The translations under genes were made by a program, and so were the position numbers. A stretch of 54,760 nucleotides of DNA, the filler included, from Sluysia triapertura (lineage: Eukaryota): NCBI GenBank assembly GCA_046118255.1. It is 4 parts of 4 records of this genome, joined end to end, with 100 filler letters (N's around TTAATTAATTAA, not from the genome) between each part and the next. Parts side by side here need not be neighbours in the genome. Positions count along the whole stretch, not along the records: positions 10,975 to 25,827 come from JBJNIA010246984.1; 3 more parts are not named here. One strand, written 5' to 3'. How positions within the stretch are numbered: the first letter of the stretch is position 1; each line of letters begins with the position of its first letter. Shown one piece after another: positions 3,001 to 46,966 of the stretch. A model generated the notes under the pieces. It was given only the letters and a program-made list of their open reading frames with translations. It had not been told where the DNA came from and searched no databases.

Positions 3001-3099
3001 ATACTCTCAGTTGAAATAATTGCTTACCACTTAAAGTTAATAATAAGGCACTTGAGACTAATTTTAAACTCCAATAATTAGACGTTATTATTTATTTTT

Positions 3100-3152
3100 A
3101 AATCCAACGGTCTAGCCCTAAGCCGTAAGCCTAGATAAGTTGGCGAACTCAC
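3100..3152 (+). ncRNA. Conserved structured motif (hairpin with GTAAG in loop), copy A, in LTR-like repeat
   Basis: AAATCCAACGGTCTAGCCCTAAGCCGTAAGCCTAGATAAGTTGGCGAACTCAC; homologous copies at 18596-18646 (-) and 24284-24334 (+); stems CCAAC/GTTGG and TCTAG/CTAGA. Confidence 0.5.
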
Positions 3153-4360: not shown

Positions 4361-5112
4361 TGTTAAGTTGTCATTACAAGCCTTTAAAATCCTAAAAAAA
4401 CACAAAAAATAAATTAATTTTCGAAAAGATAAAATAACATTTTCTAAAAAAGAAAGAATTTTCTAGAATGTTTCCACAGAATGATTAAATTAATTACTTT
4501 ACAGTTTTCGACTCCCTAGTATTGGTAAGTTATTTTTGTTAAGATAATTTGAACTTGGAGTTAAAATTTTAAAATCCACGAAAAATATTTTAAAATTGAA
4601 TTTTGATCCCTGATTTATGAGGACTAAATCATTTTTCATATATTTGTTTATTATAAAAATAAGTCTTAATAAGGTTTTAATTATAGAATATAATTTGATT
4701 ATCTCAATTTTAGTTTACCCTTTACTTATTAGAATTTTTTATATTGATTTTTTAAATTTTTTGTAATAAATTAAAAGAATCAACGTACAAGAAATTATAG
4801 AGTTTAAGGGTAAAGTTATTTTCTATTGATTATTACAAACTTTTAGTTACACATACGCCCACTTCGCGTCATAAGTCGTATACAGTAGGATAAGAGTTAA
4901 CACCTTCTACCAAAGGTGTCAAAATTTAACATTTTAATTTGAAATTATTTTCTAGGTTTAATCATTTTTTCTTACTTCATGTTTTGACTTGATTATAAAT
5001 TTATTTAGCGATATAATTTTCCTTCAGCTCATCCTAGATCTAAATATATGTACCCGGTATACAAATAGGTATACACAAAATCATGGTAGAAAGTGTTAAT
5101 AAAACCACAGCT
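4361..5112. mobile_element. Solo LTR, TGTTAGG family (degenerate), interrupted by a piggyBac-type MITE
   Basis: Starts TGTTAAGTTGTCATTAC like 11155; with the MITE removed the end reads GTAGGATAAGAGTTAATAAAACCACAGC vs GTAGGTTAAGTGTTAGTAAAACTACAGC in the 11155 copy; flanks TATT/TATG (imperfect 4-bp TSD). Confidence 0.6.
4901..5095. mobile_element. piggyBac-type MITE (195 bp)
   Basis: TIRs CACCTTCTACCA / TGGTAGAAAGTG (11/12), TTAA on both sides (4897-4900, 5096-5099); paralogous LTR at ~11887-11914 lacks the insert. Confidence 0.85.
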
Positions 5113-6068
5113 TATGGAAATGAATGTAATTTTTATAACTCAAAATCAGTTTCATCAAAATTATAATCATCTGACTAGAAATTTAAAAGTTTTATATTTA
5201 AAAACCTAGAGAACAAATTGTAATTGCTATGTAACACAATCATTTCAACATAAAGAATTACTTTAGTAAACACAGAAACAGTAGATTTTGCACAATCGTA
5301 TTCTGATGTGCTGCTATCCATGGAAATTTTTAATCAAAAAGGCATTATCTACTATAAACAATATACTATGAAATTTCAAATTCAATATGTCATACTTAAA
5401 ATCACATTTCATAACATTTCAAATTTTACATTTGCAGATTCATTAAAATTTTAGATACTTTAAAACATTTTAAATTCACAATTTCATAAAATTAAAATCA
5501 TAATCAACATCGAAAATTATCAAATGTACATTTCAAAGTTAATTCAAAACATTTCAAGTTCTCAATTCTTCAACATTCAAATCATTAATATCATTGAAAA
5601 GCATTAATTTACATTTCAAAGTTATTGTAAAACATCATTATAATCAAAATGGAATTACTTTTAACATCCTTAACTACGTCGTTACTTTTTTAGTTATTAC
5701 TTGATAAATTCCTTTCTAAAAGATAATAAGAATTTAATGAAAAGAAAAGAATTTTAAAAGTAATAGAAATGTTATGTAAAGAAAGAATTATTCTTTTACA
5801 TTTTCCTTTTTTATAAAGAAGTCAAGAAAGAATTTTATGTTTTAAAAGTATTTAAAGATTTTTTGTAAAATAAAAGAAATATGAATTTATGCATTTTATT
5901 TGTATTAATCTATATTAGTTATTATTATTTATTTCCAATTTTATTATTGTAGTACTATTATTATTACCATTATTATTAATTATACTACTATTATTAATTA
6001 ATTATTGTATTCTCATTATTCATTATCATAATCATATCACATTATTCTTCATAACTAACATCATTTGT

Positions 6069-6160
6069 ACTGTCAGTAATGACAGTCTTTTAATTGACAT
6101 AGGTTATTTACTGTCATTACTGACAGTCACTATTAAGCAAAATCAAAGCTATTGGCTGTG
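6069..6160 (+). promoter_or_regulatory. Putative promoter module: two ACTGTCA-N4-TGACAGT palindromes plus ATTGG (CCAAT) box
   Basis: Perfect palindromes at 6069-6086 and 6110-6127; ATTGG near 6151; ~620 nt upstream of the CCCH gene ATG; same module at 22665, 31824 and (degenerate) 21343. Confidence 0.55.
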
Positions 6161-6745
6161 AATAGTAGGTGTATTATTTCACAGGTGATTAGTGTACAGC
6201 AATTAATTGTTAGATAATAAATAGAAAATAATTAAAGTTTATTAAAATTAACAGTAGTCACATTTTGCTTTTTTATATTTTATTACTGAAGATTTATTCG
6301 TCAAATTTGTGTTAAATAGAAAACAAATTTTTCGACAATTACTAATTATTGTTTTGAAGTAACTTTTTAATATAGCAAAGTAAAATTTTTATAATTACTC
6401 AGAAATCATGTTATTAAATCAATTTAACTGTTAATTCATTAATGAGTCGTATGTATTAGATTTGGCTCTCTTAGTCAGTTAAACTTTGATGTGGCACCAG
6501 AATACCGATTTGATTAGAGCCTAGTGAAGATTATATTGCAGTAAAGATGTATGATAAATTTAGTGATAACTGTTCACGAAATAATAATTTTAATGAAATA
6601 CATTTCTCTAGAGAACATTTAGACTTCTGTCGACAACAATTAGTACCATTTCAATCAATTATGTCACGTAAATCACGAAGTAAGAAATGCTTATCATTAA
6701 GTGTATATTATCATAACATATATATTATAACATAATTTTAAAGCA

Positions 6746-8250
6746 ATGAAAAGTGTCAGTATACCAAATGGTCATGATTCGAATATTCCATTATCCATCA
6801 AAGATATATCAAATGATCAGAACAAAGTCTTTTCAAACGTGCTTAATCCTAAACGCGATACATCGTATGATTTTAGTCTTCAATTGATTTGACATATTGT
6901 CCAATTGATACGGAAAACAGTTACAAAATAAGTCAATTTGATGATAAATTTAAACTTTCAAAATGTGCACTTTGCCCATTTCGAGTCACAACATCGGGAC
7001 AATGTACGAAATATGGCGATCTATGTCCTTATGCCCATGGGTAGAAAAAACTAGTATCAATTTCTGAAAATGAAAGTTCAATTTGAATATCCTGCTTTCT
7101 TGTTAAAAACTTTAATAAGGTAAATTTAATTTCTTTCAAACATTTGCTCATTTTTGATTTTATGATGATTATGATAACTTTATAATTTCAATTTTCGAGC
7201 GCTCGAGAAATAAAAGAAAAAATTTTTATATAAATTTTAGATATGTCTTAAATAAATGTTTGGTAATCCATTTTATGTTTTATATTAACGAATTTAATAA
7301 AGCTTTATATATAAATTCGATAACATGTTAAATTTTAATAAGATCTGATAAATTTTTCGTTTATAACAAAATCTTAATAGAATATAAATATCTTAAAGCA
7401 ACTATAACACCAAAATATAATTTATTTAAAATGAAAGAATGTGAAGAGCGAGAAAATTATTTACATCGTTAAGAGTTACTTCGTGATTCTAGTAATTTAC
7501 AGCACGAAGAATTAGAATTAAAAAAGAAAAAGATCGAATACAACGCGAAGTACAAATTTTACGTGATCAATATCGTTTAAAAATGGATTCATTGGAAGCT
7601 AAAAAACCTAAGTTGCTTGAAGTTGAAATGAGTATCCAATTTAAAAACTGAGGAACAAATTAATAGAAGAAAAGAAATCAATAACGAAATAAGAAAACCA
7701 CAGATCAAAGTATTGCAGCTCAAAATGAAATAAATAAAGGACAACAAGTTAAGGAAAAAGACGAACAAGTTTTAACAGAGCTAGAAATATTCAATCAAGT
7801 CAAAACAATTAATCAATAAAACTAGCACAGTCGCTCTGGATGTCATTAAAATCTGAAAACATTGATTATAACGAATATTTGCATCGATTGATTATAGTAG
7901 CATTAAATGCGTTTAAATGTGAAAACTTATTTAAAATTTTATGGAATTCTAGTTTCAGCAACGATTATGAAGTCTGTGTTGCCAAACAGGGTGTTACAGA
8001 AGTTTATACAGAGTCCTTATGTAGGATACCTTTTAATTAATAAAACACCACGTCTTGCGAATTGAGAGTGAATTAGGTAATACTGATATTATCGATCTTT
8101 TTTTATGTTAAAAGATTGCAAGTTTATAATTTTTGTTTAATTTTTGTACTATATTAAGTGTATGAAATTAACGAAGTAGAATTTTATAAAGCAGAATGTT
8201 GGAAGTCGCATTTCTTTAAATCATCTAAGAGAGATTATACTGCATAAAGA
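6746..8250 (+). pseudogene. CCCH zinc-finger protein pseudogene (paralog of 30484-31228)
   Basis: 6961-7043 reads KCALCPFRVTTSGQCTKYGDLCPYAHG* (C-x9-C-x6-C-x3-H, TIS11-like context); start MKSVSIP matches MKSMSLP of the paralog; GT donor after FNK at the same position; several stops. 3' extent approximate. Confidence 0.7.
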
Positions 8251-9124
8251 ACTCATGCGATTATTCTTAAAATAACAATTAATTAATTATAATAATTAAT
8301 TTCTCTTTGTTAATTTACGGCTATGTAGGATGTTGCCAATTATTTTGCTATAAATTCAGTACTAAAATTAGTAGTTGGACACAAAATTTATGACATAATT
8401 AAATACGAAATTTACCTAAGCAAATATCAAATTCATGGCCGAGACAATTTATGTAGAACTGATTATCAATAAAGTTAACACAAATGCAGCCGCGACAACT
8501 TATGTAGAAGAGGTTATCAGTAAAGTAATCAAGAATGCAGCGAGATAACTATTAAAGAAAAAGCAGTCATTTCACGGTATCATCATTTATGATAATCGAC
8601 AAAATCAGAATAGTCAAAGAGGATTTGTTGGCTGCTAATCTTCACAATATCCCATTATCGCAGGAAATAACCAGCGATGAATAACGTTTCTCGTTGGTCA
8701 AATGGCCAATTTAGAAGTAAGGTATTTTGATGTTCTTTCATCTTTGATCGATCTTCTTGAATTCTATATCCCAATTATAGTAAAATAATCTCGATATTCT
8801 ATTTTAGCTTTTTAGATTTTGATCTAAATTTAAAAAATCTGTTTGAAATTTGTCATTTATAATTATTACATTATCGATAATAAGAATAAAATTCATTTTG
8901 CAATTAATAATTTAAATCTTGTAAATATATTTCAATTTCCAGTATCTATGATTTCCAGTGATCATGATTAAAGGTCATATACATGTTTCTATATTATTTA
9001 CCACATTTTGCAGTATTAATAAGTGTTATGAAAGATAAAAGTAACAGTAAAATTAAGTGTATTCAAAAAGAAATTTTTGTGTAATGTTTAACTTTCTCCC
9101 CATTTTTATAAACATCAAAATACT

Positions 9125-9640
9125 ATGAGTCTCTTAACCTATTCCAAACGAATTTGAGAGTGCGACAGATGATATTATTGAATCAGTAGATGATTCTGGT
9201 AACATATTCGAGAAATGAAGTGAAGGTAACTCAGGATTGGCAACCATTGAATCTGGTAATGGAGTTACAGATTCAAAAAATGTGCAGTGGAGTAAGAGAT
9301 TGGTGTTGTGTGGAACAATAATTTGTGGTATTATCATTTACGCTTCTTGTGAGAGTTTTATAAAACCGTATTTGCTATTAATCACTATGTCATTCAATTT
9401 GTCAATTCAATACGTTTATAGTTACACTAATGCAGTGGTCTAAAATAGTTACGGCATGATAATATTCTATTAATATTTATAGGTGTTCGGTTTGCATTGC
9501 AAATTATTGTCTTTGGCTGATCCATAATTATAATCTCCCATGTGGTTAGAAGAAAACTATGATGCACAATTGATATGCTAGCACTCGTATCGATAATAGC
9601 TCGAATCCATCTACCGTTTAAGCAAACGTTTTGAAATGTG
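9125..9640 (+). pseudogene. Decayed two-exon membrane protein fragment, possibly MFS sugar transporter
   Basis: Hydrophobic segment LVLCGTIICGIIIYAS followed by GTGAG; after TTTATAG (~9482) reads VRFALQIIVFG*SIIIISHVVRRKL*, resembling the GRR-x-L loop of sugar porters; in-frame stops. Confidence 0.3.
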
Positions 9641-10146
9641 TGAGTTTGTATTCAAAATGAGATATATTTAAGTCCTGACAGGAATACTGGGATATTATTA
9701 TTATCATTAAGCGTGCCTAAAGACTTGAATGCCCAAGAGAATATCTTAACTATACTTACCTTTTAAAATTTAAGTTATCCGAACTGTTTTAAGAAGTCAA
9801 ATTATCCATTAAATGAAAAGTATAATTTTATTCAATGTATTAAAAATGTGTATGTTTCTACGTGGTTGGATATTCCCAACATTTGTAATATTCAAATTTA
9901 TTGGGTTTTTGTCTTAACTTATCCTGATCAATAAATAACTTTATGTTATGAGTTCTACGATCCTAGGCTTACAAGAACGGTTAGTCCGTAAGATTTTTAA
10001 GAATCTAATTTGATAGAGGTCATTTAATTACATTTATGCTATGCAAGTACTTACGATTTTGTTAAAGTTGTACTGAAGAGTACAATTATAATGTTTTAAA
10101 CTGGATTATTGTTTCCACTTTATGGTGAGATTATTATTTGAGATTC

Positions 10147-10287
10147 TGTTACTTCATAAAATGGACTAACCGGGAATAGAATCTCGTACCTCTCGCTTAA
10201 CAACTGTGAAGTTCGATACTGTGATCACTAAGATAACAGCCCCGTCTAACAATTTTGTTTGTTATACTATCATTATTCTATAGTACA
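10147..10287 (-). mobile_element. tRNA-containing mini-LTR, degenerate copy
   Basis: Reverse complement contains TGTTAGACGGGGCTG...TTCCCGGTTAGTCCATTTTATGAAGTAACA; possible ATTC/ATTC TSD (10143-10146, 10288-10291); 5' part decayed. Confidence 0.6.
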
Positions 10288-10874
10288 ATTCTATTTAAAT
10301 AGAACCCATTGTAAATGATTTTCTAAATCGGTATTATATACCGAAAATGCTTGAGAACAATGCGATTTTAGATTTTTGTTAAAACAATGTAAATTAAATT
10401 CATATATTGTTAGTCGTTAAAAATTATTGACTATGATAAATCAATATTAATTCAATTAGCTTAAACGGAATCTCAATTGTCCAAGTACTGACTAAATCAA
10501 GTATAAGTTTTCAAACAATTCTCCTATTTAATATTAATATTTATTCACCCCAAATTTAAGCTCTTGAAATCAAATCAAAAATAATACAATAATTCATTAT
10601 TGAACGAAAATCAAAATGTAATTTATTATTATAAATCTCTACTAAGCAATATTCAAACTGGCTAAAAGGTCAAGATTAATAATAATTTTTATAATAATAT
10701 GAAGGACACTACAATATAACTAAAGAAACCAGGAGTGACGCAACAAACAAAAAAGTAAATTGCAAAGGAAGTCTCCCACTAAATGATATCAAAATACTGT
10801 TGGGATTGCCCAACTTTAGATTAAGAGACGAGTAAAGAATATATATAGAATTACAAATGAAGAAAGAATTGATG

Positions 10875-10974
10875 NNNNNNNNNNNNNNNNNNNNNNNNNN
10901 NNNNNNNNNNNNNNNNNNTTAATTAATTAANNNNNNNNNNNNNNNNNNNNNNNNNNNNNNNNNNNNNNNNNNNN
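10875..10974. other. Assembly gap with artificial six-frame stop linker (44N-TTAATTAATTAA-44N)
   Basis: Same 100-nt construct at 25828-25927 and 43463-43562. Confidence 0.97.
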
Positions 10975-11154
10975 GTGTATTATTGTTTTATGAAATGAAT
11001 TGAGTAATGTTTATGTTTGAAAGGTATGGTTGTGATTAAGGTTATTTTAATAAAGTTATTTTTAATTTTAAATTATGGGGTTGGCCACTACAATAATAAT
11101 AATAAATAGCAGCAATAATAATTTATTAACCTTTAATTATTTATATCTTATAAG

Positions 11155-11915
11155 TGTTAGGTTGTCATCATAACCCTTTAAAATCACAAAAATACATTAA
11201 AATTATTTAAAAATCAATTAAAGTGCTTTGGAAATCTTTAAAATTACTTTAAAATAATTATTTCCGAAAGAAATTTATTTCCAAAAAAGAAAATAAAATT
11301 TCTAAAAAAGAAAATAAAATAGAAGCTTCTAGAATGTTCTAGAACATTCCATCGATTTTCATTGGCTGATAACTGGTAGATATCGCCATTACGGATAATG
11401 GACTGTTTTACAATTCATCTAGTGGACAATGTTCGAATTATATACAATTCCATGTTTAAAGTAATTTACTTTTATTAAGTAGATATTAATTTTGTATAAA
11501 AAAATTAATACCATAAAATCTACTCAAAATAAAAATCTATTTAATCAAGTGTGAGGTTTCCCCAATGTATTGAGGGGCAAAATACAGGATAAACTATCAT
11601 TTATAAGTTAAATACTAGTCAACAAATTTTTATTAAAATTCGATCTTTATTTAAACCCTTTCATTTCTTGATCTTATAAGCAATTTATATTATTTAATTT
11701 TTGTAATAAGTCTTTGGATTCACATTTTTGGTTTCATTTATTGTGTAATAATTTGAGCCCTTAATCATTAAGTTTTTTAGACCCTCTATTATTAAATTTG
11801 TTAAATAGAGTCATTACTTTGTAGGTAATTGTTAACTTTTTGTTACAGAATCACCATCTTTACGACTTATGACATTTACTGTAACCGTAGGTTAAGTGTT
11901 AGTAAAACTACAGCA
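11155..11915. mobile_element. Solo LTR (761 bp), TGTTAGG family
   Basis: Termini TGTTAGGTTGTCATCA ... AAACTACAGCA with perfect 4-bp TSD TAAG (11151-11154, 11916-11919); 5' ~240 bp shared with 4361, 17834, 28804 and 41996 (-). Confidence 0.8.
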
Positions 11916-12046
11916 TAAGTTATTTAATTAGAATAAATGTAAAAAACCGAAAATAATATATTTAATATAATATATTTACATTTCCAAAATCCATTTTAAC
12001 TTAATTCTATGTAACTAATTTAATTAATAAAAAGAAAATGACTAAC

Positions 12047-12239
12047 TTGTGAAGCGGTTTGTCCAATGTCGTGATATTCTGTAAGAAATAAATGGCGCTG
12101 TTGATTAAGCCAATCTGACATACGACCTATATCATCTTCAAATAATCGTAACTGATAAATCTGTTCCAAACGACTTCGACCAGATTCCCATTTATGTTGA
12201 AGATGTGCACGATATTCGTATAATTGTTGGACGGTCTTT
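12047..12239 (-). CDS. TRIO: Internal exon of Trio/Kalirin (UNC-73) family RhoGEF, spectrin-repeat region
   Basis: Open frame KTVQQLYEYRAHLQHKWESGRSRLEQIYQLRLFEDDIGRMSDWLNQQRHLFLTEYHDIGQTASQ matches the Trio/Kalirin pattern HLHQMW...LDQCFQLRLFEQD..KMFDWI....LFL..Y.EIG; ends at a GTTAGT donor; 5' part lost in the N gap. Missed by the ORF track. Confidence 0.85.
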
Positions 12240-13837
12240 NNNNNNNNNNNNNNNNNNNNNNNNNNNNNNNNNNNNNNNNNNNNNNNNNNNNNNNNNNNNN
12301 NNNNNNNNNNNNNNNNNNNNNNNNNNNNNNNNNNNNNNNNNNNNNNNNNNNNNNNNNNNNNNNNNNNNNNNNNNNNNTACTTTCATTTGTTATGACTACT
12401 TGGATTATATTTTATATTATACTCAATAGTATAACTTTATTTGCTTTAGTAAAATTGGATACATTATAGAAAATGTTTATAAGTATGATATACAAGAATC
12501 AACATTGTAAATTTTTTGTAAAAAACAATACTGTAAGTTTTGTGAAAAAAATTAAAAATAAAAACATTTTAAATAAATTGCGAATACAAAAATATTAATA
12601 TTGCACTTATTTTTTTATAATATCTAAATATCCTCGAATGTTTATTATAACCCGAAAAACGATTTTAAAAACACTGACAATATATTTATAGGCATACAAA
12701 GCATTCAGAAGAACATCTCAACAACAAATCAGAAGCCAGAAATCAATAAACAAATGTGAAGAACGTAAATGTCAATAAAACTTGAAAAGTCCGCTGAATA
12801 CTAATAGGTACAAACAAATACCAACTAACAAGGTGGATATAAATGAATAAAATACATGGAATCGAAAATAATATACAGTGATATTACATATAGTAATTAA
12901 CTAGCATATAGATAGAAATTGACTATAGAGTCATAATATAAGATCCACTTTACAAACGTTATTATGGAATTTAATGGACTGGAGGGAGATTAATTATAGA
13001 AAAATCTTATAGGATGAAAATTAGACATTTATTGGCTATAAATTTGAACAAGGAAAAATAGATTTTTCAGTATCATTATAAATTTGGTTTCGAACTTTAG
13101 TCTCGATTCTTCAAAGTTGTTTCGGTTATTTACCATACAAATTACATTGATTCCACCAAGTAGGTGCAGTATTGGTCTAAATAATCATAATGAGAAATTA
13201 AGAAATATATACTCTTTTAATTGTTCATGCTTTTGGGGCGAGAATTAGGACTCTTTAAATGTGATTATCAATTGTATTCAGTTGTAACATATTTGGATAC
13301 AATGAAATTTAATATTTAAGTTTGATTTTATTTTTTCCTAGGGGTTTTGATTTAAAGCTCTTACGCAAAATCACACTTCCATATTTAAAATTCATAGAGA
13401 CAAGTTAAGAGTAATCAAGATAGATAATTAGGATTATTATCAGTAACCGATAATTAGGATAGATGTGTTTTAAAGTAATAAAACACATTATATTTTTATA
13501 AAACTAATAATAATAATTATAATTATAAAAATAAATAATAATTTTTATCGATATTTTAGTAATCGGTTTGTAATATTTTGTTGAGTTTCATTTTATGTTT
13601 AAATTTTATTGTTGACTTTAATTTTAATTATTTTCGTAATAATCATAATTGTAACTTTTATCACAATATAAATAATTTTAAGTTTTACAAGAACCTTAAG
13701 TCCATTTTGAATTTTAATTTAAATTTTAAACCCGTTAACGACTTAATATTAACTCGGCCGTCACAATAGTATCAAGCCAGAAAGTGTTGTTGAAACTAAA
13801 AATGAGTCTGCATGAATTGTAGTTGTTTTGAAATTAA

Positions 13838-14210
13838 CCCTTTCAGCCCCGGGACCGCCATATGGCGAAAATGGCGATTTTTTCTCTTACACAACTGCTA
13901 TGCAAGATCCTACTAAAGTAACACGAAGAGCATAATCTTTATATCTGGAGGAAGCTAAAATTATTACATAATTAAAAAATACAAAATTGTAAATTTTGTA
14001 ATACATTAAGTAATTGTAACTCAAATTATAAAAACTGAAATAAAAGGATCTCTGGAAATAGTGGTCCAAATTATATAAGGTATTACATCAATGAAAACAC
14101 TACCAATTCGTTTGATTCTTCATTTAAAAGTTTATCTCATTGTCATGATTTCGTTTTAAAATTTTGGATCAAAATATCAACGAAACCAGCATTAATATAA
14201 ATCTAAAGGG
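13838..14210. mobile_element. Possible piggyBac-type MITE
   Basis: TTAA-CCCTTTCAGCCCC left end; candidate right end AAAGGG-TTGA; only a 6-bp TIR match. Confidence 0.35.
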
Positions 14211-16057
14211 TTGAATGTTTATATTGTGTTGTGTTTGTTTTAATATTGCACTATTGATGAAAGTTTTGAAAGTTTTGAAAGTTTTTTACAAAGGCAGAAA
14301 AGAATTTAAAGTTATTACACTTGTTAAAAAATTTGTAAATTTCCAAGCAGGTTTTAATAAATATTAAAAAGATTTCAAAGCATTAAGGTTTCAATACGAT
14401 TACAATGCAAATAAGAAAACGCATGGATTGTTTGCTTTTAGGATTATTAGTTCCAGCCCTCTGATAAATAATGATTCGCATTCAAAGTCGCTCGAGAAAA
14501 TTAAGTTTGGCAGGAAATCTAAGGCCTGTCATCTCATATAAATTTCGGTCGAAAACTATTTCTAATGCGTGTTTGTTTCTATTTTAACTTCTGCAATGCG
14601 GCAGAATTCAGTATGATAATGTATGATAATCGAAACTGGTGCGATTTGTTACCTCAATCAGCACGAAATCAGTTTCAGTTTTCCGTATTTACGGTCATCT
14701 TATCTCATTGTGATTATATATATTTAGTTAGACAATTTAGAGATGTAAATATGAAATTAGGCTTTATTCATCATGGTTTATTGTGGTTGAATGAATACAT
14801 AGGACTTTTATTTTATTTTTTCTTTGAATTTTTGCTTTTTCTAAATTATAAAAGTAATTTTCAAATCAGTGTCTTAAGCACTGTAATAAAGTAAATAATT
14901 TGAATAAATTAGAAAGATCCATAAATTGTTAATTGTTGATTTAATAAGACCTCACGGTCGTTTGTTACTTAAATTAAACTCAGCAACAAGAATAATTTAC
15001 GCATAATTACTTAAATTTAATCTTAATACCACCAAGTTATTCTTATTATTCATCCGAATATATATTGTTTTCTGTAGCATTTTCTTTTTCGCTATATACG
15101 GTCGCATTTCTTATTTCTATATCCAATAACAATTTCATACGTTTAGTCCTTTTACAAAAAATTGTGATTTTGTTAAATTTTCGTACTTGTAAAGTCAATA
15201 CTTAGTTATAAATTCTTATAAAATGCTGTACAAATTGCTTAGTTCACTCACGAAACACAGCTAATCTATAAGTTACATATATTAACACAAGTATTATGCA
15301 ACATAGCGTAGAATAAATTCATATCTCAAGTACGAAACTTTAAGTTTAGGCTCACTGAAACAATTACTATAAGAATAAAAAAACAGTAACCAATAATAAT
15401 ACATATATTAGTGATTAAATAATAAAAGTGTAATAAAATGCATTTGTACTTAAAATTAAAGTTAATATTTTTGAACAAATTTAAAATATTAATATTATAT
15501 ATTGATTTTATAAATAAATAAATCAATGTTTATTAAAAAAGGGAAGGCTGTCAAAATTTTAATTCAAAAATGTTACAATCTGAATAACTTTACATAAAAT
15601 TAAAATTGATATTCAGCAATGTTATTAAAAATTACAGTTTCTATTTAATATTTTATTCACGTTTAAACTTAAAGCAAGAATTTTAAATAAAAAATTTATA
15701 AAAAAAAGAAATTTTGTCAGTTCGCATTGAAATAGAGTTCAAATTATTTAAATTTATTTCAATATTTTTAATTATATATCTTATCTTTGTCTACATCATT
15801 ATATATTTTAGTAATTTAAAAATGACTCATCTGTATTTTGCCATTATTTATTTACGATCGAAACGATTACCAAAGCATAATTGATACAAATAATAGTAAT
15901 AATATGATTTTATATAAATTCATATTTACATGTTCAAAATTGATTATTTGATTATCTTAATTTTAACTGACAAGATTGGTTTATCTCAACATTCTAAATT
16001 TTATTCTTATTACAGAATTATTAAATATTTTCCCTTTATCGAGAGTACTTTTTACTT

Positions 16058-16385
16058 TTCGTCTTTTAATCCCAATGAATCATAAAAGAATTTAGGTGCA
16101 ATTACAGAACCTGTAATTGGCATTCCTTCTGCTCGTTTTTGATTAAACCATTTAAGTATAGCTGTATCTAAAACTTCTTATGACATTTTCATACTTTTCC
16201 GAGTTGAAGGACCTGCATTACTATCACAATCTCTAGGAAACTCCAACTTTCTGTTTTGCTTAATTATATCAGGAACTGTTGAACACAAACTACGTATTCT
16301 TCCGAAAGTTTCGATGTGAATTTACCCTTTTTCACTCATTTCAATTAACTGAAGTTTTTGTTTCACAGTCAGTAAAATACATTAT
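16058..16385 (-). mobile_element. Tigger/pogo (CENP-B/Jerky-like) transposase remnant, N-terminal HTH domains
   Basis: Reads LTVKQKLQLIEMSEKG* ... TVPDIIKQ ... GPSTRKSMKMS*EVLDTAILKWFNQKRAEGMPITGSVI ... FYDSLGL, typical psq-HTH plus CENP-B HTH; stops and frameshifts. Confidence 0.85.
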
Positions 16386-18136
16386 CTAAACGATAACTAG
16401 TACATAGAGAAAACTGGTTATACAGCAAGTATAAGATCTATTACATATAAACCATTACCGAATTAAATTAGTTAGAAAATGTAATATTGATTCGTGAGAA
16501 GCTTATTCGAGAGAAGATTTTGTACGATAAAAACGGAATAGTTATTGATCATAAATTCATAAATATATAAACATTAGAATTTTATAGATTATGTAAATAT
16601 TATATCCATATTATTTATGTTCATATATTAGTAAAAAAGTTATATTATTTATTTATGTTCATTTATTAGTAAAAATTATATTATTATCTGTAAATATTAT
16701 TTTTATATTATTTGTAAATATTAAAGAGTTTTACAATTAATAGTTAATTAATAATTGATGTTTAAAGGTTAATTGATAATTAATGTTTATCAAAATATCA
16801 ATGTTTATCTAAAACTTTACTAATTTCCGCTGAATTTAAACAATAATCTTACAAATATTCAAAATTTTATAAATAAAACTTTGTAATTTTACAATTGATT
16901 GACAAATATTAGTCATCAACTGGTAAACAAGAGTAGGTTTATAAAAAGGTATTAAACAAAATTCTAATGGCACAATTTAATTATTAGTTTAGTCGAGAGT
17001 AATCTTTTATTTTGGTTTTTCGCCATTTAAAAAATACGATCCGTTGATATGTGGAAAGTTCGAAACTTGTTTGACAAGGACTACCAAGGAATCTACGACA
17101 ATCGATTATGAGAGGACATATATATCTCTAATTATTGAAAAAATACATTTGAGTAAGCTTATTCTTATTAAGTTTTAGACATAGTTATATTGTCTTAATA
17201 TCCTACTCAAAATCATGTATTTGTTACACCCAAAGATTATCTCTGGATTAAATTAATTTTAAAATTATTCTTTATATTATATAAAATATTTTGTTTACAT
17301 TATATACATATTATTTGTTAATATTGTTTTTATGTTTTTCTTTTTAATAAATTCATCTGTATTTGCTATAAAGACTTGTTTTGTTATTTAGAGTTAATAA
17401 AAGGGGTTTACAATATAAAGTAAAGTTAGAAAGTTTCGTAAAACTTAATATAAAATTAAAATCAATTTTGAAGATTAAGAGATTAAACGAATTGAGATTC
17501 TTAGAGCATTTACATGATAATTTCATAGAATAAAATTCGATAGCATTTGACATAGTGACCCTCCGCATTAAATTTTCTTTTAAAAAATCTTACGTACGCG
17601 TCCTTATTAACAATAAATGAAATAAGGATTTATAAAATCTAGTAATTATAACAAAATTGAAATAAAGTCAGAAACCCTGTATTATACAATTTATGATTCT
17701 GAATATAAATTTTGGTAAGACAACGATTCAATTTTGAGTAAACAGTTTCTGAAAAATAAAGAAAATTTCAATTTATTGCAGTATTTTCATTTAAATTTTC
17801 CATGCACTTATCGGTAAGTTATTTAAGTTATTTTGTTAGGATGTCATCACGACCCTCTAAAGTCATACATAAAGCTTTAAAACTATTTATAAATCTCTAA
17901 AAACACTTTAAAAATATTTACTTTCCGAAAAAGAAAATAAATTTTCTAAAAAAGAAAATTCGCTTCTACATATAGAATAGAAGCTTCTAGAACATTCCAT
18001 CGATTCTCATTGGCTAATAACTAGTATGTAAACTTGTATTAGTTTAATAAGAATCGCCATTTTGAAAACATAATTCAAATTATTAGTAAGTTTTTAGCAG
18101 CCATCTTGTCAAGTGCTTCACGCAGTCAATTTTTTA

Positions 18137-18345: not shown

Positions 18346-18595
18346 TTAAAAATTTGGAATTTTTAGTTAATTAGTATTTAATCAATATTTTAATCAATAT
18401 TTTAATATACTTACTGTTGGTCAATTTTCTTATTGTGTTAGATAAAATTTAATTAGGACCTTTTAGAAGTTTCTAAGTTAGAAACTTATTAAACGTGTTT
18501 TTTCGATTAAATATAGTGAGATTATTAACTTTAAGATTACAGGAACGCCAACTATACGTTGTGTGAGAGAATGTGCAGAATAAAGATTAAAAAGC

Positions 18596-18646
18596 GTGAG
18601 TTCACCAACGTACTGGACTTACCAGCTTGGGCCAGCCGTTGGATTT
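18596..18646 (-). ncRNA. Conserved structured motif, copy C
   Basis: Reverse complement AAATCCAACGGCTGGCCCAAGCTGGTAAGTCCAGTACGTTGGTGAACTCAC; inner stem CTGG/CCAG is a compensatory variant of CTAG/CTAG. Confidence 0.5.
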
Positions 18647-23211: not shown

Positions 23212-24700
23212 TGTAAACATGATAATGATAAACTTTATTTGTATGTATTTGAAAATAGAAGAACTATGACTCTATGATTAATATTATACATTAGTGATTT
23301 ATTTATTTTTAGTTAATTTGTATTTCATATTTGTAAGTTATTTTTATTGATTTTTAATCCATATTTCAATTAATTAAATTATTTGGAGTAATATCATAAA
23401 ACCTTGGATTTTTAATTGAATTATTTGCGTAAGTGATTTTTAAATTATTAATTAAATATAAATTTTAATATTTTTTAAATTAATATTTTAAAGTAATATT
23501 TTAAATTAATATTTTAATCTGGCCAAGGCCAGCTAAGTCGACTATAAATAGTCACAAGATTTACCAAGCATCACACAGTTTTTAATACAGGTTTATGAAA
23601 ACAAATTTTGTAAATTTGTACGAAGTGGTCAAGAAGATTTCAATTCGATTTCTGCTAAATCTGCTTGATAAATCTTGGTTTAATAATAATACGTTAGTTT
23701 ATTGTATTAAGTTACGGATATATAACACATTCATGTAAAATCTACATAAATTTATTTTGTAAGTATTTTTAAAAGATCTTATAATAGATCTTGCGCAAAA
23801 TCCTCATTAAAGTATTGTCGTTTTTAGGAATTAAATTGATTAAATTAATTCCTCGCAAATTAGTTATTGTATCACTTTAATATTTCCATTTGTAATTTCG
23901 TTTACCCATTATTTAATAAATTTTTTCTTTTAAGTAATTATTTTTTGTTAAATTTCATAGTTTCTATTATAAAATATTCAGTAAATTAAAGATTTCAACT
24001 ATTAGAATTTAACTCTAATCACATAAAATCATTTTTACAGATCCTTTTCATAGGATCTTCGTAAAATACTTTATAAATTATTTCTATTTCCACAGTTAAA
24101 TAATTGCCTTAATTATTCAGAAACTTAATATTAGAAATAAGTTATATTGATATTATACCTCCAGGACTTAGCCTAAATTACTAAATTTGAAAATTAACAG
24201 TAAAGTTGTTAAGCTAAGAATATTAAAACCATGCACGTTCTAGAAAATCATTCTAAACTTTACTTCAAAAATCTATTACCTACAAATCCAACGGCTAGCC
24301 CTAACCGGTAAGCCTAGTACGTTGGTGGACTCACGTTAAAATCCTAATTTATTCTAAGAATTGTCACAATATTATACTATTCTAAATCATGACTTTAAGA
24401 TAAGTCCAATCGGATTTAATGTTCTTAAAATTTGATTTCGTATCACTATTATTATTAAAATGATTGTCGACTATAGCAATAAGGTTTGATCTTTATAAAT
24501 TTTGAAACATTATTATTAGAAATATTTCATGTTTTCCCTGTTATCATTTTTGCAGTTTTAAGAGTATATAAATAAATGAAGGAAGATGTTATCGGTTATC
24601 AGTTGTCAAATTATAATTTTTTCAAGTTATTAAATTAGCATTGGACCTTATGTCCTTAATCAATAACAACTTTACTAAACATGCAATATCAAACATTGGC
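23212..24700 (+). mobile_element. Long LTR/leader-like block upstream of the envelope glycoprotein
   Basis: Shares GATCC-loop-GGATC..CGTAAAAT hairpins and the conserved 51-nt motif (24284-24334) with ~1600-3150 and ~18590-18790 (-); boundaries uncertain. Confidence 0.45.
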
Positions 24701-24758
24701 CAGCCATTTCAACCCAAAATAATATTGTAAATGAAATTGTCCATAATTTGGAACTTCA

Positions 24759-25827
24759 ATAAATAATTTGTTATTCATAATTGTTTTGTTGGCATTATTT
24801 GGAATTCAAAACTAAAAGTTTTTGATTGTAGCCAACCTCAAATTGGAAGAAAGTTCTCTTTATTGGATACGGAAGACTGTCCGGAATCAAGACCAAATAG
24901 AGTCAAAATAAAAGATATGAAAATATTAAATGTGTACCAAGAAGGAAATCTGGTTACGACTTTAGTTAGAGAATGTTTAGTTAAAAGATCAGTAGTAATA
25001 TGGTATTGTGGACATCACAGTCACTCTTCAATTATTGACATATCTAATATATTAAAACCTTTCAAAATTTCGCCTAATAATTGTCGTGATTCATTCGAAA
25101 CTGGATACATAAGCTTAAACAAAGGAGATAAATTAAGAATTAAAAATAATGAGAAAATAATTTGTAATATTAGAACAGCTAGTAACGTATTAATTGACAG
25201 TACTTGTGAAAGAGGATCAATAGAATATGAAGGGAAAATTTATCATAATGTTGTAGCTCAAAAAACATACTTGGTAAGTTTGAAATCTTTTAATGAAAGT
25301 TTCAATTTAGAAAAAGGCACTATGATGTCCAGACCTTTTTGCAGAAGCGACCAAACAAGTTGTGACACTGGCTAATCTATATTAATAAACGAATTAGAAA
25401 AATACCAGTGTCCATTAATATTCTTAAAATAAATTAAGTTTAATTTAATTTCAAGATTTATGTATCAAAATGACGATGAGTTAGCAGTAGAAGAAATATA
25501 TAAAAAACAAATTTATAAGGATAGTTTAGATAAACCTGAAAGAAAAAGACTTCATGAAATTGAAACTCCGACAATTTTGATGGCAAATAAAGAAGAAGAT
25601 GGATTATTATTTGTTTCAAAGAAATTAGTAATTAGATGTGGACAAAAAATGACGGAAACTAACTACCAAGGAATATATTTATCAGAAAAGACGATAATTC
25701 AGGCAAAAAAAGGAATAGACACAAAGAATCTACAATTAAACACATACTTCAATAACAAAATTGACTTTTATTATCACTTAGGACTTATGTCATTAGAAAA
25801 AGTTTATCAAGCCATGATAGCTAGAGA
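24759..25827 (+). pseudogene. Chuvirus (Jingchuvirales)-type class III envelope glycoprotein, endogenous and disabled; cut by contig end
   Basis: Signal peptide LLFIIVLLALFGIQ, then a frameshift to LKVFDCSQPQIGRKFSLLDTEDCP...VYQ...VRECLVKRSVVIWYCGHHSHSSI...CRDSFETG...TCERG...HNVV; matches the YDC..SLLD..C and CG(M/H)HSH(T/S)S signatures. ORFs 24863-25375 and 25460-25879 are one frame split by two TAA stops. Confidence 0.8.
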
Positions 25828-26162: not shown

Positions 26163-26299
26163 TATTGGGGTAAAAGGCCCAAGTGATATTTGGTGGGATT
26201 GACGGGCTGATAGCTCAGTAGTAGAGCATCGAACTGCGCAGCTAGAGTTTCGGGTTTGATCCCCGGTCAATCCATTTTAATCCATTATGAATTCTAACA
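26163..26299 (+). mobile_element. tRNA-containing mini-LTR
   Basis: TATTGGGG...GGGCTGATAGCTCAGTAGTAGAGC...GGGTTTGATCCCCGGTCAATCCATTTT...TTCTAACA; TSD TTAT/TTAT. Confidence 0.75.
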
Positions 26300-27168: not shown

Positions 27169-27314
27169 TGTTGGGATACACGCCTAAAGTGTCATGTAGT
27201 ATAACTGAATATAATAAAAATGAAATTGTTAGACGGGGCTGATAGCTCAGTGGCAGAGCAATCAAACTGCGCAGCGATGGTCCCGGGTTCGATTCCCGGT
27301 CAGTTCATTTTATG
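27169..27314 (+). mobile_element. tRNA-containing mini-LTR, 3'-truncated
   Basis: TGTTGGGATACACGCCTAAAGTG...TGTTAGACGGGGCTGATAGCTCAGTGGCAGAGC...CCGGGTTCGATTCCCGGTCAGTTCATTTTATG; intact A and B boxes. Confidence 0.8.
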
Positions 27315-28803: not shown

Positions 28804-29400
28804 TGTTAGGTTGTCATTCAAACAACCTAATCAATGGTCATAAAACATTTGAAATCTTTAATTCTTGAGAAAAGAACCTTATTTTCTAAAAAAACTTACT
28901 TTATCTAAGAGGAACTTATTTTCTGAAAAAGAAAATTCCTTACTAAAAATAGAAAACAATGTTCTAGAACATTCTAGAATTCTGCTCTTCTGTGATAGGC
29001 TGTTTTATTTTTGTATTTAATGATTTTATTTTTAGTACTTTATTAATTAGGTTTAATTTATGAAAATAATTATTAAATTTATAAATATTAAATCACTTAT
29101 CTTTACAAAAGTGGACTTAAGGTCATTAATCATATAAATTGAACAAGAAAACACAAGAAGTCCTTATATTATACGAAATGTCAAAGTAACAATAAAACGA
29201 AAATAATAGATAAGATAACAAACAATGTTCATCTGATTATGTAAGAGACCATATCCAACATATAAATGAGCGACATTTCCGGCAACACAACATATAGGTT
29301 TTGATACATTTTCCGAGAGATTTTCTTGCCTCATGAACAACCTAGTTACCAATTCTTCGATACTATCAAACGCATCTATACTAAAGCTCAATAATAAAAA
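28804..29400. mobile_element. TGTTAGG-family LTR; 3' part homologous to 50100-50620 (-)
   Basis: TGTTAGGTTGTCATTCA start (partial duplicate at 28518); GTTCTAGAACATTC motif; GTGGACTTAAGG, ATTATGTAAGAGACCAT and GAACAACCTAGTTACCAA recur inverted at 50131-50493. Confidence 0.6.
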
Positions 29401-30483: not shown

Positions 30484-31228
30484 CTAGGATTTTATAAAGG
30501 TGACTAATATTAAATTTAACATAATTATTAGACATTTATTAATAAATTCTACATCAAATACATAAAGATTTTCTTTTTTATGTTTTGAACATGCTATACA
30601 AGTTCCTTCTTCACATCCTGTAATTAAAATTAAGAAAATTTTAAAATCAGTAATGAGAATAATAAAATTCTTACAACAAAGAAAGCTTACTTTATTGAAG
30701 TCATTTATGAGATGAGATGAATACCAATTTGTATTTTCTTTAGACAATCCGCAGATTGGTACCAGTTCGTTGAGTCCATGCGCGTAAGAACACTGTTCTG
30801 TGTATCTGGAACATTTACCTGAAGACGTCGATGGGTACGAACACAGTACACATTTAAGAAAACTTGATTTTTCTTTTACATATCTTTTTACATAATTACT
30901 TTTGATATCATTTGGATAATATAGCGTATGACCTTTTGTCATTTGGATGTCTAAATAATTCGAGGAATTAAAATGGGAATGGATTACATTTTGAAAATTA
31001 TTACAATGAATTATATCTTTCTTCATGAAATTTTGAAGCAATTTAACTTAGATTTGACTGATTTCGTGTTCATTCGAATCTTTTAATGAATCTTCATACT
31101 TAAATTGATTATAATTATTTGTTGTCTTTGGTGTACACTTTAATTTCACCATGATCATTTAGCGTGAATTTAATAGACGTAAATAAATCTGATGATTTGT
31201 CTAAATCTGGAAGACTCATACTTTTCAT
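30484..31228 (-). pseudogene. CCCH zinc-finger protein, probably disabled; paralog of 6746
   Basis: ORF contains FLKCVLCSYPSTSSGKCSRYTEQCSYAHGLNEL (C-x9-C-x6-C-x3-H + G..EL); MKSMSLP start at 31228; GTAAGC donor at 30690 and TTACAG acceptor at 30618. Confidence 0.7.
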
Positions 31229-41740: not shown

Positions 41741-41996
41741 AAATGGCGATTTTCATTAAACTGATGCTAGTTTATATACTAGTCACCAGCCATTGAAAAT
41801 CGATGGAATGTTCTCTTCTATTTATAGAATCAAATTTTCTTTTTTAAAATTTCTATTTCCGTTTTTGGAAAATAAATTTCTTTTTTGGAAAATAATTTCC
41901 TTTCTGGAAAATTAATATTTTTAGGTGTTTTTTGACACATAAATAATTTTAAAACATTTTGTGAGATTTTGAAGGGTCTGGATGGCAGACCTAACA
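41741..41996 (-). mobile_element. TGTTAGG-family LTR 5' fragment
   Basis: Reverse complement TGTTAGGTCTGCCATCCAGACCCTTC...GAACATTCCATCGATTTTCAATGGCT...ATCGCCATTT, collinear with 17834-18062. Confidence 0.7.
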
Positions 41997-42984
41997 GTAT
42001 CAAGAGATACTATTTAAAAGTCAGTTTCTACATTGCATAATTTAACTTCTCCGAGCCCCTTTTTCTATTCATTCGTTTCTTTACTAAAGTAAAATAAAAG
42101 TCAATATATTATACTAAACCTTACCAATATGAAAACAAAACTTTACACATGTTATTAAATATACTGATAAATATGAACTGAACTAATTCTATGAGCAAGC
42201 AAGTGTAAGGTTTGTAGTTCCTATTTGGGGTATATCTCACTCAACTCATGCGTGATTTTATTGTTATTATATTAATATGGGCCCTAAACTCACCGAATAA
42301 CGTCAATATCCGCAGATATTTAAATTTGTTTTATCCCACTTTTATAACTTTTTGTAGCACTAAACTGTTTTATAACAGACTAATAAATGTAAATATATAA
42401 ATAAAAATTTCGCACTCAATGTGTTTAAAATAATCGAGTTCCTCTATTGAATGCATAAATAAATAATAAAATATGTAAGTAATTATTATTTATAATTTTT
42501 AAGCAACTGATATAAAAAATTAAAATATTTAAACCAATCAACTACTATATAAAAAGTTATGAAGTCAAAACAATTTTCATGTTAACAGATCACTAGAAAA
42601 CAACTAATGAAATTTACACTGGGGTTCACTGGACCCCACTGGTAGATGGAAGGTTCTTAAATCTAAACATCTAAGTACAAAGTTGATTTAATTTTTGATT
42701 GTTAAAATATATTAGAAGTGAAATTAATTATAAATTATTATCAACTAAAATTATTAGTTTTTTGTCATTTCTTTTGCCAAATTTTTATAATTTGTTATTA
42801 TTTTTTATTATTCTAATTATTTTTGTTAATATCATTACAAAAAAAGATTATATCTTTTTTATTAATATATTTATTTGTATATTTGTTTTTTCGCATTATG
42901 CTATTTTTGATTTTCGAGGTTATTTCAATATTTTATTTTTATATGACGATATTTTATTTTTCAGAATTTTCTGGAATTATTTTC

Positions 42985-43562: not shown

Positions 43563-44125
43563 ACCTCTTTGCGGATCATTGTTTCATTTTTATAATTTGA
43601 ATTATTAGCGTACCTTAGTTTTCCATTAGACCTAAATTTAAACTCTAAAATTTCATGATCTGAATCAATATCTGACGATGATGAAATTGCTTCATCTGCA
43701 ATTTGATTGTCAATATGTTTAATGACAGAATTTTCATTACGATATACATACCAGAAAGTATCATATAACCACGATTCATGGCAAGACACGTATGGATGTT
43801 GTGATAAAATACCAACAGCTTTAAACGCGTACAACTTTTCATCCTCACTCCAAAAATCCCGACTAGCACCAAAACTAAAATGTCCAACATCGTCTGTTTT
43901 TATAACTTCCGCTCCATCTTCATCTCCGTATTCATAAGATGATGAATGTTGAATTTTAGATATACTAATATTATTACCCATTTTGTACATGTTTTGCAAA
44001 TCCGTTACAGCTAATTTTATTTCATCATTAGTAACTTCTTCCAAAAACAATAATGACATACCGTAGATTCTACGCGCACCTAAATTTTTGTTTTGAAATC
44101 TACAAAGCAATTTTTTCATGAACAA
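43563..44125 (-). CDS. Chimeric ORF: ~155 aa unknown N-terminus fused to a Mago nashi fragment (cut by gap)
   Basis: C-terminus [32 protein letters not shown] matches Mago [31 protein letters not shown]; the conserved FYLRYYVGHKGKF that should precede it is absent. Confidence 0.75.
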
Positions 44126-44696
44126 AATTTTTTAAAGTTAAGTTTTTAAAACTGTGCTATAAAGCACATCATTAAAACACACATGAAAATGTCTATTTAA
44201 ATAATAAAAATAAAATAATAATAAAATAATAAAAATAAAATTAATAATAAAAATAATAGTAATGAAATAATAGTAAAATATATTATGAATAAAAATTCAG
44301 TAAAATAATGCAGCTTTTAGATATAAGAATAAAATGGAAATATGGCAATAAATCTATTATCAATAAATTTCTTAATAATGTTAGACTAGTCGCATAAAAC
44401 TGCCTTAGTGCGTGAAATAACTTGAATAATTTTATGTAAATGACATTTTCCTTTTGTTCAGAAATGAATATGAATCTCTTATCATAGAAATATAGTTAAT
44501 ATCGGATAAAGCAAATTATTTAACTACCAAAATTAATATGTATACTGTGATAGCAAATTGAAACGAGGCAAAATCAAAATTGATGACAATGTTTACATCA
44601 ATGTAATACGTTAGTAGGAGTCGAAACTAGTATAACTAAATGTTAACAATCAAATAAATATTAAAATGTATTAAAAGTAAAAATGAAATAAGAAAT

Positions 44697-45344
44697 CTAT
44701 GTTTTCCATATAAAAAAATTTAAATCTTTATAACTGAACGTTATACAATGATCGATTACACAAGTTCCATTAATCCAACAATCACCATCGATAATAAATA
44801 CATGCCAAGAATATCCAAAATATAAATTAAGTTTAGTTTTAATTTTCTGCGTCAATTCAAGTATATATTCGTCAGATATACCTTTTGAAAATTGAATAGC
44901 TGTATTTTTAATAAAACTATAACGATATTCTGGATCACAAGTATATTCTATTTCATGATAATCTAAGTGGTCATGTCTGCTTAAAAGAGTTTCCCTATTA
45001 ATATTATTTTCCTTTAAAAGATTGCTCGTATCAATTGCGTAATCTTTCTTAACATTTCCATATGTAGTTACATCATCAACAAATCTAACGTTATTTTCAT
45101 TAACATTCGAATCTATCGAACCAATTACACGCTTATTTGATACTTCTAATAGATCGCGTTTGGACATCTGTTCATTTCCATTCGAATCTATTGGAAGATT
45201 TACATTTTGACCTGATTTATCCTTAGTCGACACCTCTACTAACAAATCATCTTTCGAAATCTGTTCATTGGCATTCAAATCTATAGAATAGTTTTGAGCA
45301 TGATTATATGATGAGAGTGAATCGGTGAATATTTCCGGTGGCAT
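44697..45344 (-). CDS. Tegument-allergen-like (TAL) protein: EF-hand-like loops + dynein-light-chain-like domain
   Basis: Intact 215-aa ATG ORF; DLNANEQISKDDL and DSNGNEQMSKRDL fit the EF-hand loop pattern; C-terminal KIKTKLNLYFGYSWHVFIIDGDCW...FFIWKT is the DLC-like signature of flatworm TALs. Confidence 0.75.
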   Translation of the reverse strand: MPPEIFTDSLSSYNHAQNYSIDLNANEQISKDDLLVEVSTKDKSGQNVNLPIDSNGNEQMSKRDLLEVSNKRVIGSIDSNVNENNVRFVDDVTTYGNVKKDYAIDTSNLLKENNINRETLLSRHDHLDYHEIEYTCDPEYRYSFIKNTAIQFSKGISDEYILELTQKIKTKLNLYFGYSWHVFIIDGDCWINGTCVIDHCITFSYKDLNFFIWKT

Positions 45345-45636
45345 AATATTTTAATATAAACTTTAATATTTGGCGAGCAAAAACTTTTCGTAACGTAAAG
45401 TGAAACTCCTTCGTAACATAATTTATGAAATAGAATATGTACAGTGAAAATATAATAAAAGGTAGTGCCTTAGTGATGATGAAATGGCAACAAGCGTTAC
45501 ATTTAACAAAGTATTACTAAAATGATTTCAATAAAGAGATTTTATTATGCGTTTGTGATTTGTTTGTGATGAGTTTTATGTAGTCGGTGGTGATAGTGAA
45601 TGTGATGTAAGATATATGTTGAAGTGTGACACCACA

Positions 45637-46966
45637 CCATGTTTAATTTTCTGTAACCTGCGCAAAATCGAAATTTTCCATCTCTCTTTTGCACCATCGT
45701 TATTGAAGAAGCCCACAGTGAAAAACTACGACGTATTACTTTTTCTGTTTCATACTTTCAATTTGTTTAATAACTTCATCCGTAAGACTATAGGCTAATC
45801 TATACGGTTTTTGCTTTATACTCTTTTCATCAATAAGTGGTATATGGTGTTTTATAATACTTGTTCTTTCTAATAGAGTTTCATTTTTAGCAAACACTGT
45901 TTGAAATTTTATAAATAATTTTGTCAGTGTTCTGTTTTCCTCAACCGTTAAATCATCAAACTGAGTTTCCATTTAGTTAACGGACTGAATAGCATTAACA
46001 GGATTCTGAACTAATTCTACGGATGATAAAAATCCAGTTTTTGTTCCTTTTCTTTATAATACATTAGAGTTAGAGTAATTTAAAACTCTCAATGGGATAG
46101 TTTCATTATTTGTATCATTATTAATTCAATATTAATTCATTAGAAAAAATTAGTATATTATTTGTCGTTTGATACGATTTAATGGGTTCAAAAGTAAAAT
46201 ATCTTGCTAAGCATATTCTATATTAATTGGTATTAATACTTCACTCCATATAATGTGTATATTATCTATTGATTTATTATCTAATGATTGTAATTTATTT
46301 ATTGAAGGATCGAAAACTATATCTTTTAACTGAGACAATGTATTCATTCTCGCAATACATGGATAAGACAAATTTTTTGCAACCAATACATTTTGAGTAA
46401 TATTTTGTTCCCCTATAGTTATATTACAATTTAAGATCCCTACTGGTGTGATAGGATTTCCAGACATCATAATTATTTTTATATTCGTTTGCTCAATATT
46501 TCGCATTTGGTAAAGTTTAAGTTCTCAGTAATCTAAAAGAGTAGTTGACATGCCCGTATCAATTAAAGCCAACTTGCATTTATTATTTACTTGAATTGCA
46601 ATAGTTCTATTTTCAGTCAACCCATCTGAAGCATGTAACATTCTAACAAAAGGAGCAGTCACGTCATTATGTATAATTTTGGAATTCAAATTTTCTTGTT
46701 TTTTTCTGTACTATAGTGGTTTCCTGATTATAAACTGGTACTTTCTCTTTATATTTATCCATACATATTTTTGGGACTCGTGATTTATATGACTTCTCTT
46801 GATGTTTTGTTTGCTGTTTAATTTTTTTATCTATTTCTTCATCTTCACTAGTGGTTGGATATACTTTAAAATCTCTTTGATCTTGTTCCAACTTTATTAT
46901 TTTATCATGAAAATGCTTAGATACAAATGGTCTCACTAAACATGGTGTGTTGAGGGCAATAAACAA
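45637..46966 (-). mobile_element. Ty3/gypsy gag-pol remnant (aspartic protease and start of RT)
   Basis: IQVNNKCKLALIDTGMSTTLL (DTG protease site, ~46540-46600); KHHIPLIDEKSIKQKPYRL...EVIKQIESM; SLWASSITMVQKRDGKFRFCAGYRKLN (RT N-terminus), cut off at 45636 by an LTR-like end. Confidence 0.9.

Follow-up and report, generated by a model that had tools for sequence, protein, structure and literature searches.

A decayed class III fusogen gene in Sluysia triapertura, probably the env domain of an old Burro-like Ty3/gypsy retroelement

Introduction

Burro/GYPSM1 elements are giant gypsy-like LTR retrotransposons of planarians. According to the available portion of a 2019 description (PMC6431247), their env lies in frame between gag and pol, behind a BCL2-like domain. 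The same portion reports that Burro env hits mononegavirus fusion glycoproteins, that copies number in the thousands and that decayed fragments bearing stops and frameshifts occur in Dugesia japonica. GAG-ENV-POL Ty3/gypsy errantiviruses with an ENV of the HSV/gB type have since been described from nematodes, bryozoans and flatworms (PMC13524379, eLife 2026). In the accessible parts of that paper, the supplement holds nine flatworm elements, one of them with 215 copies. Schmidtea has six elements (1–215 copies), Macrostomum and Prostheceraeus are also represented, and ENV-POL counts are given for Dugesia and Girardia. How such elements enter cells is described there as unknown. The glycoprotein family to which the gene described below belongs has also been captured by another LTR retroelement, the mosquito BEL/Pao element Anakin, which carries a chuvirus G in the account at hand (PMC7642597).

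In the present study, we analyzed a 54,760-nucleotide stretch of Sluysia triapertura DNA (hereafter the window), which consists of four parts joined end to end. A first-pass annotation of the window had placed a chuvirus-type envelope glycoprotein fossil directly behind an LTR-like leader, in a host group for which few such cases were thought to exist. The supposed rarity does not hold because the layout has been published for planarians, as far as the available texts go (PMC6431247; PMC13524379, with nine flatworm elements). We propose, with a probability of about 0.88, that the broken class III fusogen gene is the env domain of an old Burro-like Ty3/gypsy gag-env-pol copy in what is probably a planarian genome.

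Results

Sequence and bounds of the env fossil

The fossil is the decayed N-terminal half of a gB-type (class III) env ectodomain. Its frame spans 339 codons at 24809–25825 on the plus strand, contains two in-frame TAA stops (25373 and 25430) and is truncated by an assembly gap. The contig ends at 25827, as had been annotated, and meets a 100-nt padded gap, beyond which the scaffold continues. Because the gap hides the 3′ side of the env copy, including its C-terminal half and any membrane anchor, no in-line pol is visible. The ectodomain frame carries the motifs FDC..SLLD..C and CGHHSHSS and is preceded at 24759–24809 (+) by a hydrophobic signal-like segment, whose best 11-residue stretch has a mean Kyte-Doolittle value of 3.6. 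The hydrophobic stretch is read in a different frame, and thus a single frameshift separates this segment from the ectodomain. The frameshift, both stops and both motifs of the first-pass annotation are all present in 24759–25825.

The annotated signal peptide stands only as a hydrophobic signal-like segment; it has no ATG and is thus not a start-bearing signal peptide. In the window sequence, the frame of the segment has no ATG downstream of its last upstream stop, and translation from the ATG at 24731 reaches a stop after 11 codons. In all eight relatives displayed, a hydrophobic segment is located upstream of the (Y/F)DC motif and inside the ORF. The 24759–24809 segment is likely to be the internal signal of a polyprotein, a reading that explains the absent ATG. 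No start-codon-bearing ORF exists for the env copy, which cannot yield protein because it has no start codon, one frameshift, two stops and no gag.

Class III fusogen identity

When translated with X in place of each stop, the env sequence matches Pfam family PF24664 (Monjiviricetes fusion glycoprotein) with an E value of 2.7e-25 and 88.9 bits (cut-off, 27 bits). The match covers profile positions 20–333 of 653, that is, the first half only. An AlphaFold model of the fragment, for which a 22-row alignment served as input, has a mean pLDDT of 82 and displays gB-like elements, including a fusion domain, a PH-like domain and the start of a central helix. The best viral Foldseek matches of the model are chu-like G proteins (E 1e-18, TM 0.64–0.69), at an identity of just 14–18%. 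The best PDB match is herpes gB (E 8.8e-6), and the next solved structures after herpesvirus gB are GP64 and rhabdovirus G. Comparison with HCMV gB by VIA-align gave a Z score of 9.5 and an rmsd of 6.0, with 236 aligned. By sequence, a PDB search with the env protein returned no real match, and a word-index homologue search with it was empty. The profile match and the predicted fold confirm that the fossil is the N-terminal half of a fusion protein of class III, the herpes gB/chuvirus G type. The chuvirus-type class III fusogen claimed at first is thereby borne out, and structure prediction with Foldseek recovered the fusion protein class that had been expected beforehand.

Relatives and phylogeny

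A search of 1.84 billion representatives with the env protein yielded 164 matches at E ≤ 0.001. The best env relatives are long ORFs and not free viral G proteins. In a Pfam scan of 25 of these 164 matches, plus later additions, env is followed by protease, reverse transcriptase (RT), RNase H and integrase, with a zinc knuckle or gag ahead in some relatives. Four metagenome loci (L001–L004) have the same env-before-pol order at the DNA level; no LTRs were seen in them, and none matches the window at the DNA level. Env follows a zinc knuckle, a ubiquitin-like domain and a weak Bcl-2-like domain in L003 and a weak Bcl-2-like domain in P0001, with the Bcl-2 matches in relatives lying under the Pfam cut-off (E 0.00096 and 0.063). 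Additional ORFs are located downstream of pol in two gag-env-pol relatives (L001:10617–12104 and L002:11375–13470), and the former ORF matches an RNase T-like exonuclease, albeit with an E value (1.4e-5) below the cut-off margin. Another relative, P0004 (HBK71150.1), is a gypsy gag-env-pol polyprotein deposited under a Flavobacteriaceae MAG and is likely to be animal DNA misplaced in a bacterial bin. No related locus was found in the genome-contig collection with P0004 as the query.

The window env shares 32–36% identity over ~340 aa with the env of gypsy polyproteins, 26–29% over ~155 aa with two named chuvirus G proteins and 23% with a wasp protein. A quick tree of 99 rows retained 98 of 172 candidate proteins, after the exclusion of 70 that were too short or late-starting and 4 without a match. 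In this tree, the window env falls within a 13-row clade (SH-aLRT 96), and 10 of the other 12 rows bear gag/pol domains in the same or an adjoining ORF. A careful 31-row tree places it in a 16-row clade (support 95/91) that is separate from the chuviruses. Two viral contigs in which the L polymerase is present are real chuviruses and were used as controls. Set against both chuvirus G and retrotransposon-borne env, a comparison foreseen in the first-pass annotation, the fossil thus sits in the polyprotein-env clade. Its terminal branch is long (0.86–0.89), and a close sister is absent.

The leader block and the primer-binding-like site

Upstream of the fossil lies an LTR-like repeat block at 23400–24283 (+; borders approximate), in which a TATA-like site (23542) precedes twin GATC hairpins (near 23774 and 24040) and the read depth is intermediate. 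The block is followed by a conserved 52-nt repeat core (24284–24335, +), a stem-loop that ends in a part resembling a primer-binding site (PBS) at 24323–24334. The core recurs at 3100–3152 (+), where twin hairpins are found at 2767 and 2896, and at 18595–18646 (−). No Pfam family was matched in the 1.35 kb behind the 3100–3152 copy. In comparisons of the three leader copies, only the core and the hairpins were trusted, as long alignments were swamped by AT-rich chance matches. The GATC hairpin at 24040 folds better than shuffles (z −4.9), and the plus strand of the core folds no better than shuffles (z −0.3 to −1.0). A search of the viral-contig collection with the core pattern found no related locus. 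No Rfam family was matched by the leader, and the idea that it contains a ribozyme was dropped for this reason.

The TGG 12-mer at 24323–24334 was compared with a tRNA-like repeat of the window, and 11 of its 12 positions match the 3′ terminus of that repeat plus CCA. A match of 10/12 is reached by 4 of 738 TGG sites, three of which are core copies. Because the target was picked post hoc and the core copies count as one event, the PBS-like match is suggestive only. The tRNA-like repeat family has shared flanks and a G3:U70 pair, with copies at 26204–26274, 27236–27307 and 50310–50380 (+) and further copies at 53917–53985 and ~10150–10240 (−). We take the G3:U70 pair to indicate an Ala-type tRNA.

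A 424-nt spacer (24335–24758) without a trace of gag or pol separates the core from the signal-like segment. Seventeen gag-side segments from relatives found no match in 23–24.8 kb, Pfam detected no domain in the three plus frames of 23400–24760, and neither the segment search nor Pfam gave a Bcl-2 or gag trace upstream of the env copy. The annotated absence of gag and pol between the leader and the ORF is therefore upheld. The claim of an LTR-like block is upheld in part, given that the block is a repeat with a recurring 52-nt core, whereas a paired LTR, a TG..CA end and a target-site duplication were not seen in the window. The upstream block is likely to be the end of an LTR, followed by a primer-binding site for a tRNA, although the retention of the PBS-like site in all three core copies and the lack of these three LTR features run counter to a plain LTR end. 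The odds that this block is the 5′ LTR of the env element itself are about even.

Read depth and copy abundance

Read depth was assessed in run X1, which may be the assembly source, as summed contig depth, which is not equivalent to copy number. The depth is 1.0e5–3.2e5 over the env region (G) and 87–90 over the 5′ flank, and by this rough measure G exceeds the flank by more than 1,000-fold. The depth amounts to 1,380–17,080 over 23406–24213, to ~1e5 in the two bins containing the 52-nt core and to 17–25, a single-copy-like value, over 24517–24718. An exact 458-nt contig with a depth of 13.8 spans 24317–24774 and thereby bridges the spacer; other exact contigs have depths of 11–15. The bridging contig establishes the leader-env junction as genuine, at roughly single-copy depth, and the G region is clearly a very abundant repeat. 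Paralogous G contigs diverge from the window by ~15–20% and extend past the gap. Two runs labelled as other organisms also contain G, at lower depth.

Discussion

The env fossil of the window is best explained as a remnant of a gag-env-pol retroelement. The first-pass annotation had raised an env-bearing retroelement as one of its readings, and this reading gains support from the kinship of the fossil with the env domains of gypsy polyproteins and from the deep repetition of G. The Burro-like copy is likely to have been internally deleted or rearranged and to persist as a truncated fragment rather than as a whole element. In intact members of the family, one long ORF would encode Gag followed by accessory domains, then an internal signal segment and a gB-like ectodomain with a membrane anchor, and the same ORF would continue into protease, RT, RNase H and integrase. 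Env would be released by signal peptidase and element proteases, and the released Env may trimerize and allow particles to fuse with other cells. Copies would spread via retrotransposition. The window copy would be a dead member of this family, with its gag side lost or separated.

The Bcl-2-like-to-env order described for Burro, in the portion of its description available, is matched by L003 and P0001. In comparison with Burro, which is represented here by its description, the window copy displays neither gag nor BCL2, and neither an LTR pair nor the size of the element is visible in it. A second fossil in the window matches best to P0004, which is a compact polyprotein of 2,627 aa, in contrast to the giant Burro elements as described. 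The window env shares a gB-type fold, and its relatives share an env located before pol, with the Platyhelminthes C1a errantiviruses, as these are presented in the accessible parts of PMC13524379. In the supplement file consulted from that paper, CGHHSH occurs only in Smed_errantivirus_6, and the window env carries CGHHSH as well. The elements of that paper are presented as intact, whereas the window copy is dead, and the window env has one extra cysteine (codon 119) relative to the Schmidtea C1a rows displayed. The comparison with Pao-type Anakin made in the first-pass annotation is not supported. Anakin belongs to BEL/Pao according to the available account (PMC7642597), whereas the relatives of the window env are Ty3/gypsy-type polyproteins by domain content, with env upstream of protease and thus before pol.

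A direct endogenous glycoprotein of a chuvirus (Jingchuvirales), or arthropod contamination, would account for the chu-like G proteins being the best structural matches among viral proteins and for the similar CGHHSH motif. Chuviridae G proteins, including that of Tacheng Tick Virus 4 (P0053, to which L005 is identical in the tree) and P0052, indeed have the same Pfam family and fold as the window env. However, they form a separate clade, and their identity to the window env is limited to 26–29% over ~155 aa. The trees group the fossil with polyprotein env, and the AU test rejected a clade of the window env and three confirmed chuvirus G proteins with a p value of 2e-80, under a constraint that was easy to reject because other insect-type G rows were excluded. 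Moreover, a search of the viral-contig collection with the window env protein found no related locus, and run X1, which contains the exact flanks, also holds G as a deep repeat. A direct chuvirus insertion, one of the readings first put forward, and arthropod contamination are both largely refuted and are highly improbable.

The position of the env piece behind the leader admits two further explanations. The leader and the fossil may constitute an amplified, non-autonomous env-only element (LTR-PBS-env-LTR) that is mobilized in trans, given that the PBS-like site lies 424 nt upstream of the signal-like segment and that gag is absent between them. We consider this arrangement, which had also been suggested at first, very unlikely. 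The single-copy depth of the leader-env junction argues against an amplified env-only family: the depth is 17–25 over 24517–24718 compared with at least 1e5 over G, and the bridging contig, at 13.8, is like the other exact contigs (11–15). This depth contrast carries the caveat that the G contigs are ~15–20% divergent, and a diverged spacer could miss the 80% cut. Furthermore, the signal segment has no ATG. Alternatively, the leader may belong to a family of gene-capturing cassettes in this genome and the env piece may be the cargo that follows it, such that the leader and env derive from different sources or represent internally replaced Burro-like derivatives. The 52-nt core occurs three times, each time with different neighbours, decayed host-type genes (DEAD-box helicase and Unkempt finger) are found nearby, and the leader-env junction is single-copy, all of which would fit cargo capture. 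However, no recognized cargo lies directly behind the other two cores, and the core and G have depths of the same order, as expected of parts of one family. Cargo capture is therefore an explanation that we find possible but improbable, and the preferred reading is an old Burro-like gag-env-pol copy.

As it stands, the Burro-like fossil adds one more dead copy to the planarian-type enveloped retroelements already described, from a lineage that is only ~35% identical to its closest database relatives. Its addition is a candidate primer-binding site, a feature that is missing for the six Schmidtea elements in the eLife table, as far as the consulted part of PMC13524379 lists it. It is conceivable, though in our judgment doubtful, that the hairpin leader with its tRNA-Ala-type PBS is the 5′ LTR of the enveloped Burro-like family and also heads host-gene cargo cassettes. 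If this were true, the env fossil would be the missing link, in the form of an enveloped retroelement that uses its LTR to copy host genes into chimeric cassettes by the thousands. If the leader is an LTR that drives gene-capturing cassettes, the element that mobilizes them would gain a name.

The host is likely to be a planarian flatworm. By eye, eight cysteines of domains I–II and several motifs of the env agree with the six Schmidtea sequences in the eLife supplement, and the nematode, bryozoan and insect rows displayed do not match (PMC13524379, selected supplement rows). The GC content of the window is ~24%. Searches with three host-type ORFs (word-index for two and PDB for a spectrin-like exon) returned no named relative.

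Other fossils and host-type pieces in the window

A second fossil, at 45629–46972 (−) on a different contig, comprises a weak env-tail match, an aspartyl protease, a linker and the start of RT, with seven stops in the protease frame and additional frame changes. It is collinear with P0004 from the env tail through the protease to RT (linked E 3e-65). The identity to P0004 is 37% over 333 aa for the protease and linker, 69% over 36 aa for the RT start and 42% over 48 aa for the env tail, for which 36 bits is weak when taken alone. The env tail matched one of the four relatives tried, and a profile comparison gave a probability of 0.4%. Two weaker scraps lie elsewhere in the window. One, at 198–308 (−), matches the C-terminal half of the P0004 env (37 aa, 46%, E 0.001), and the other, at 9137–9651 (−; match, 9430–9651), is aspartyl-protease-like and adjoins an unexplained short frame.

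Host-type genes are also represented by remnants. A decayed, frameshifted and apparently intronless DEAD-box helicase occupies 20837–19474 (−), with weak Pfam DEAD matches (E 0.02), and ends ~0.8 kb short of the third 52-nt core copy. Scraps of an Unkempt-like CCCH finger (PF25427) are located at 6877–7041 (+) and 30484–31047 (−), with E values of 9e-7 and 2e-6, respectively. The 43563–49087 region (−) contains host-gene pieces that include a Mago nashi fragment and a dynein light chain whose N-terminus is repetitive, along with pieces that we take to be chitinase-like and kinase-tail-like. A presumed spectrin-repeat-like exon with a resemblance to Trio/Kalirin is found at 12023–12238 (−); the PDB search with it was empty. 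A further dispersed repeat family is present at 11129–11382, 17910–18062, 28887–28974 and 41741–42021.
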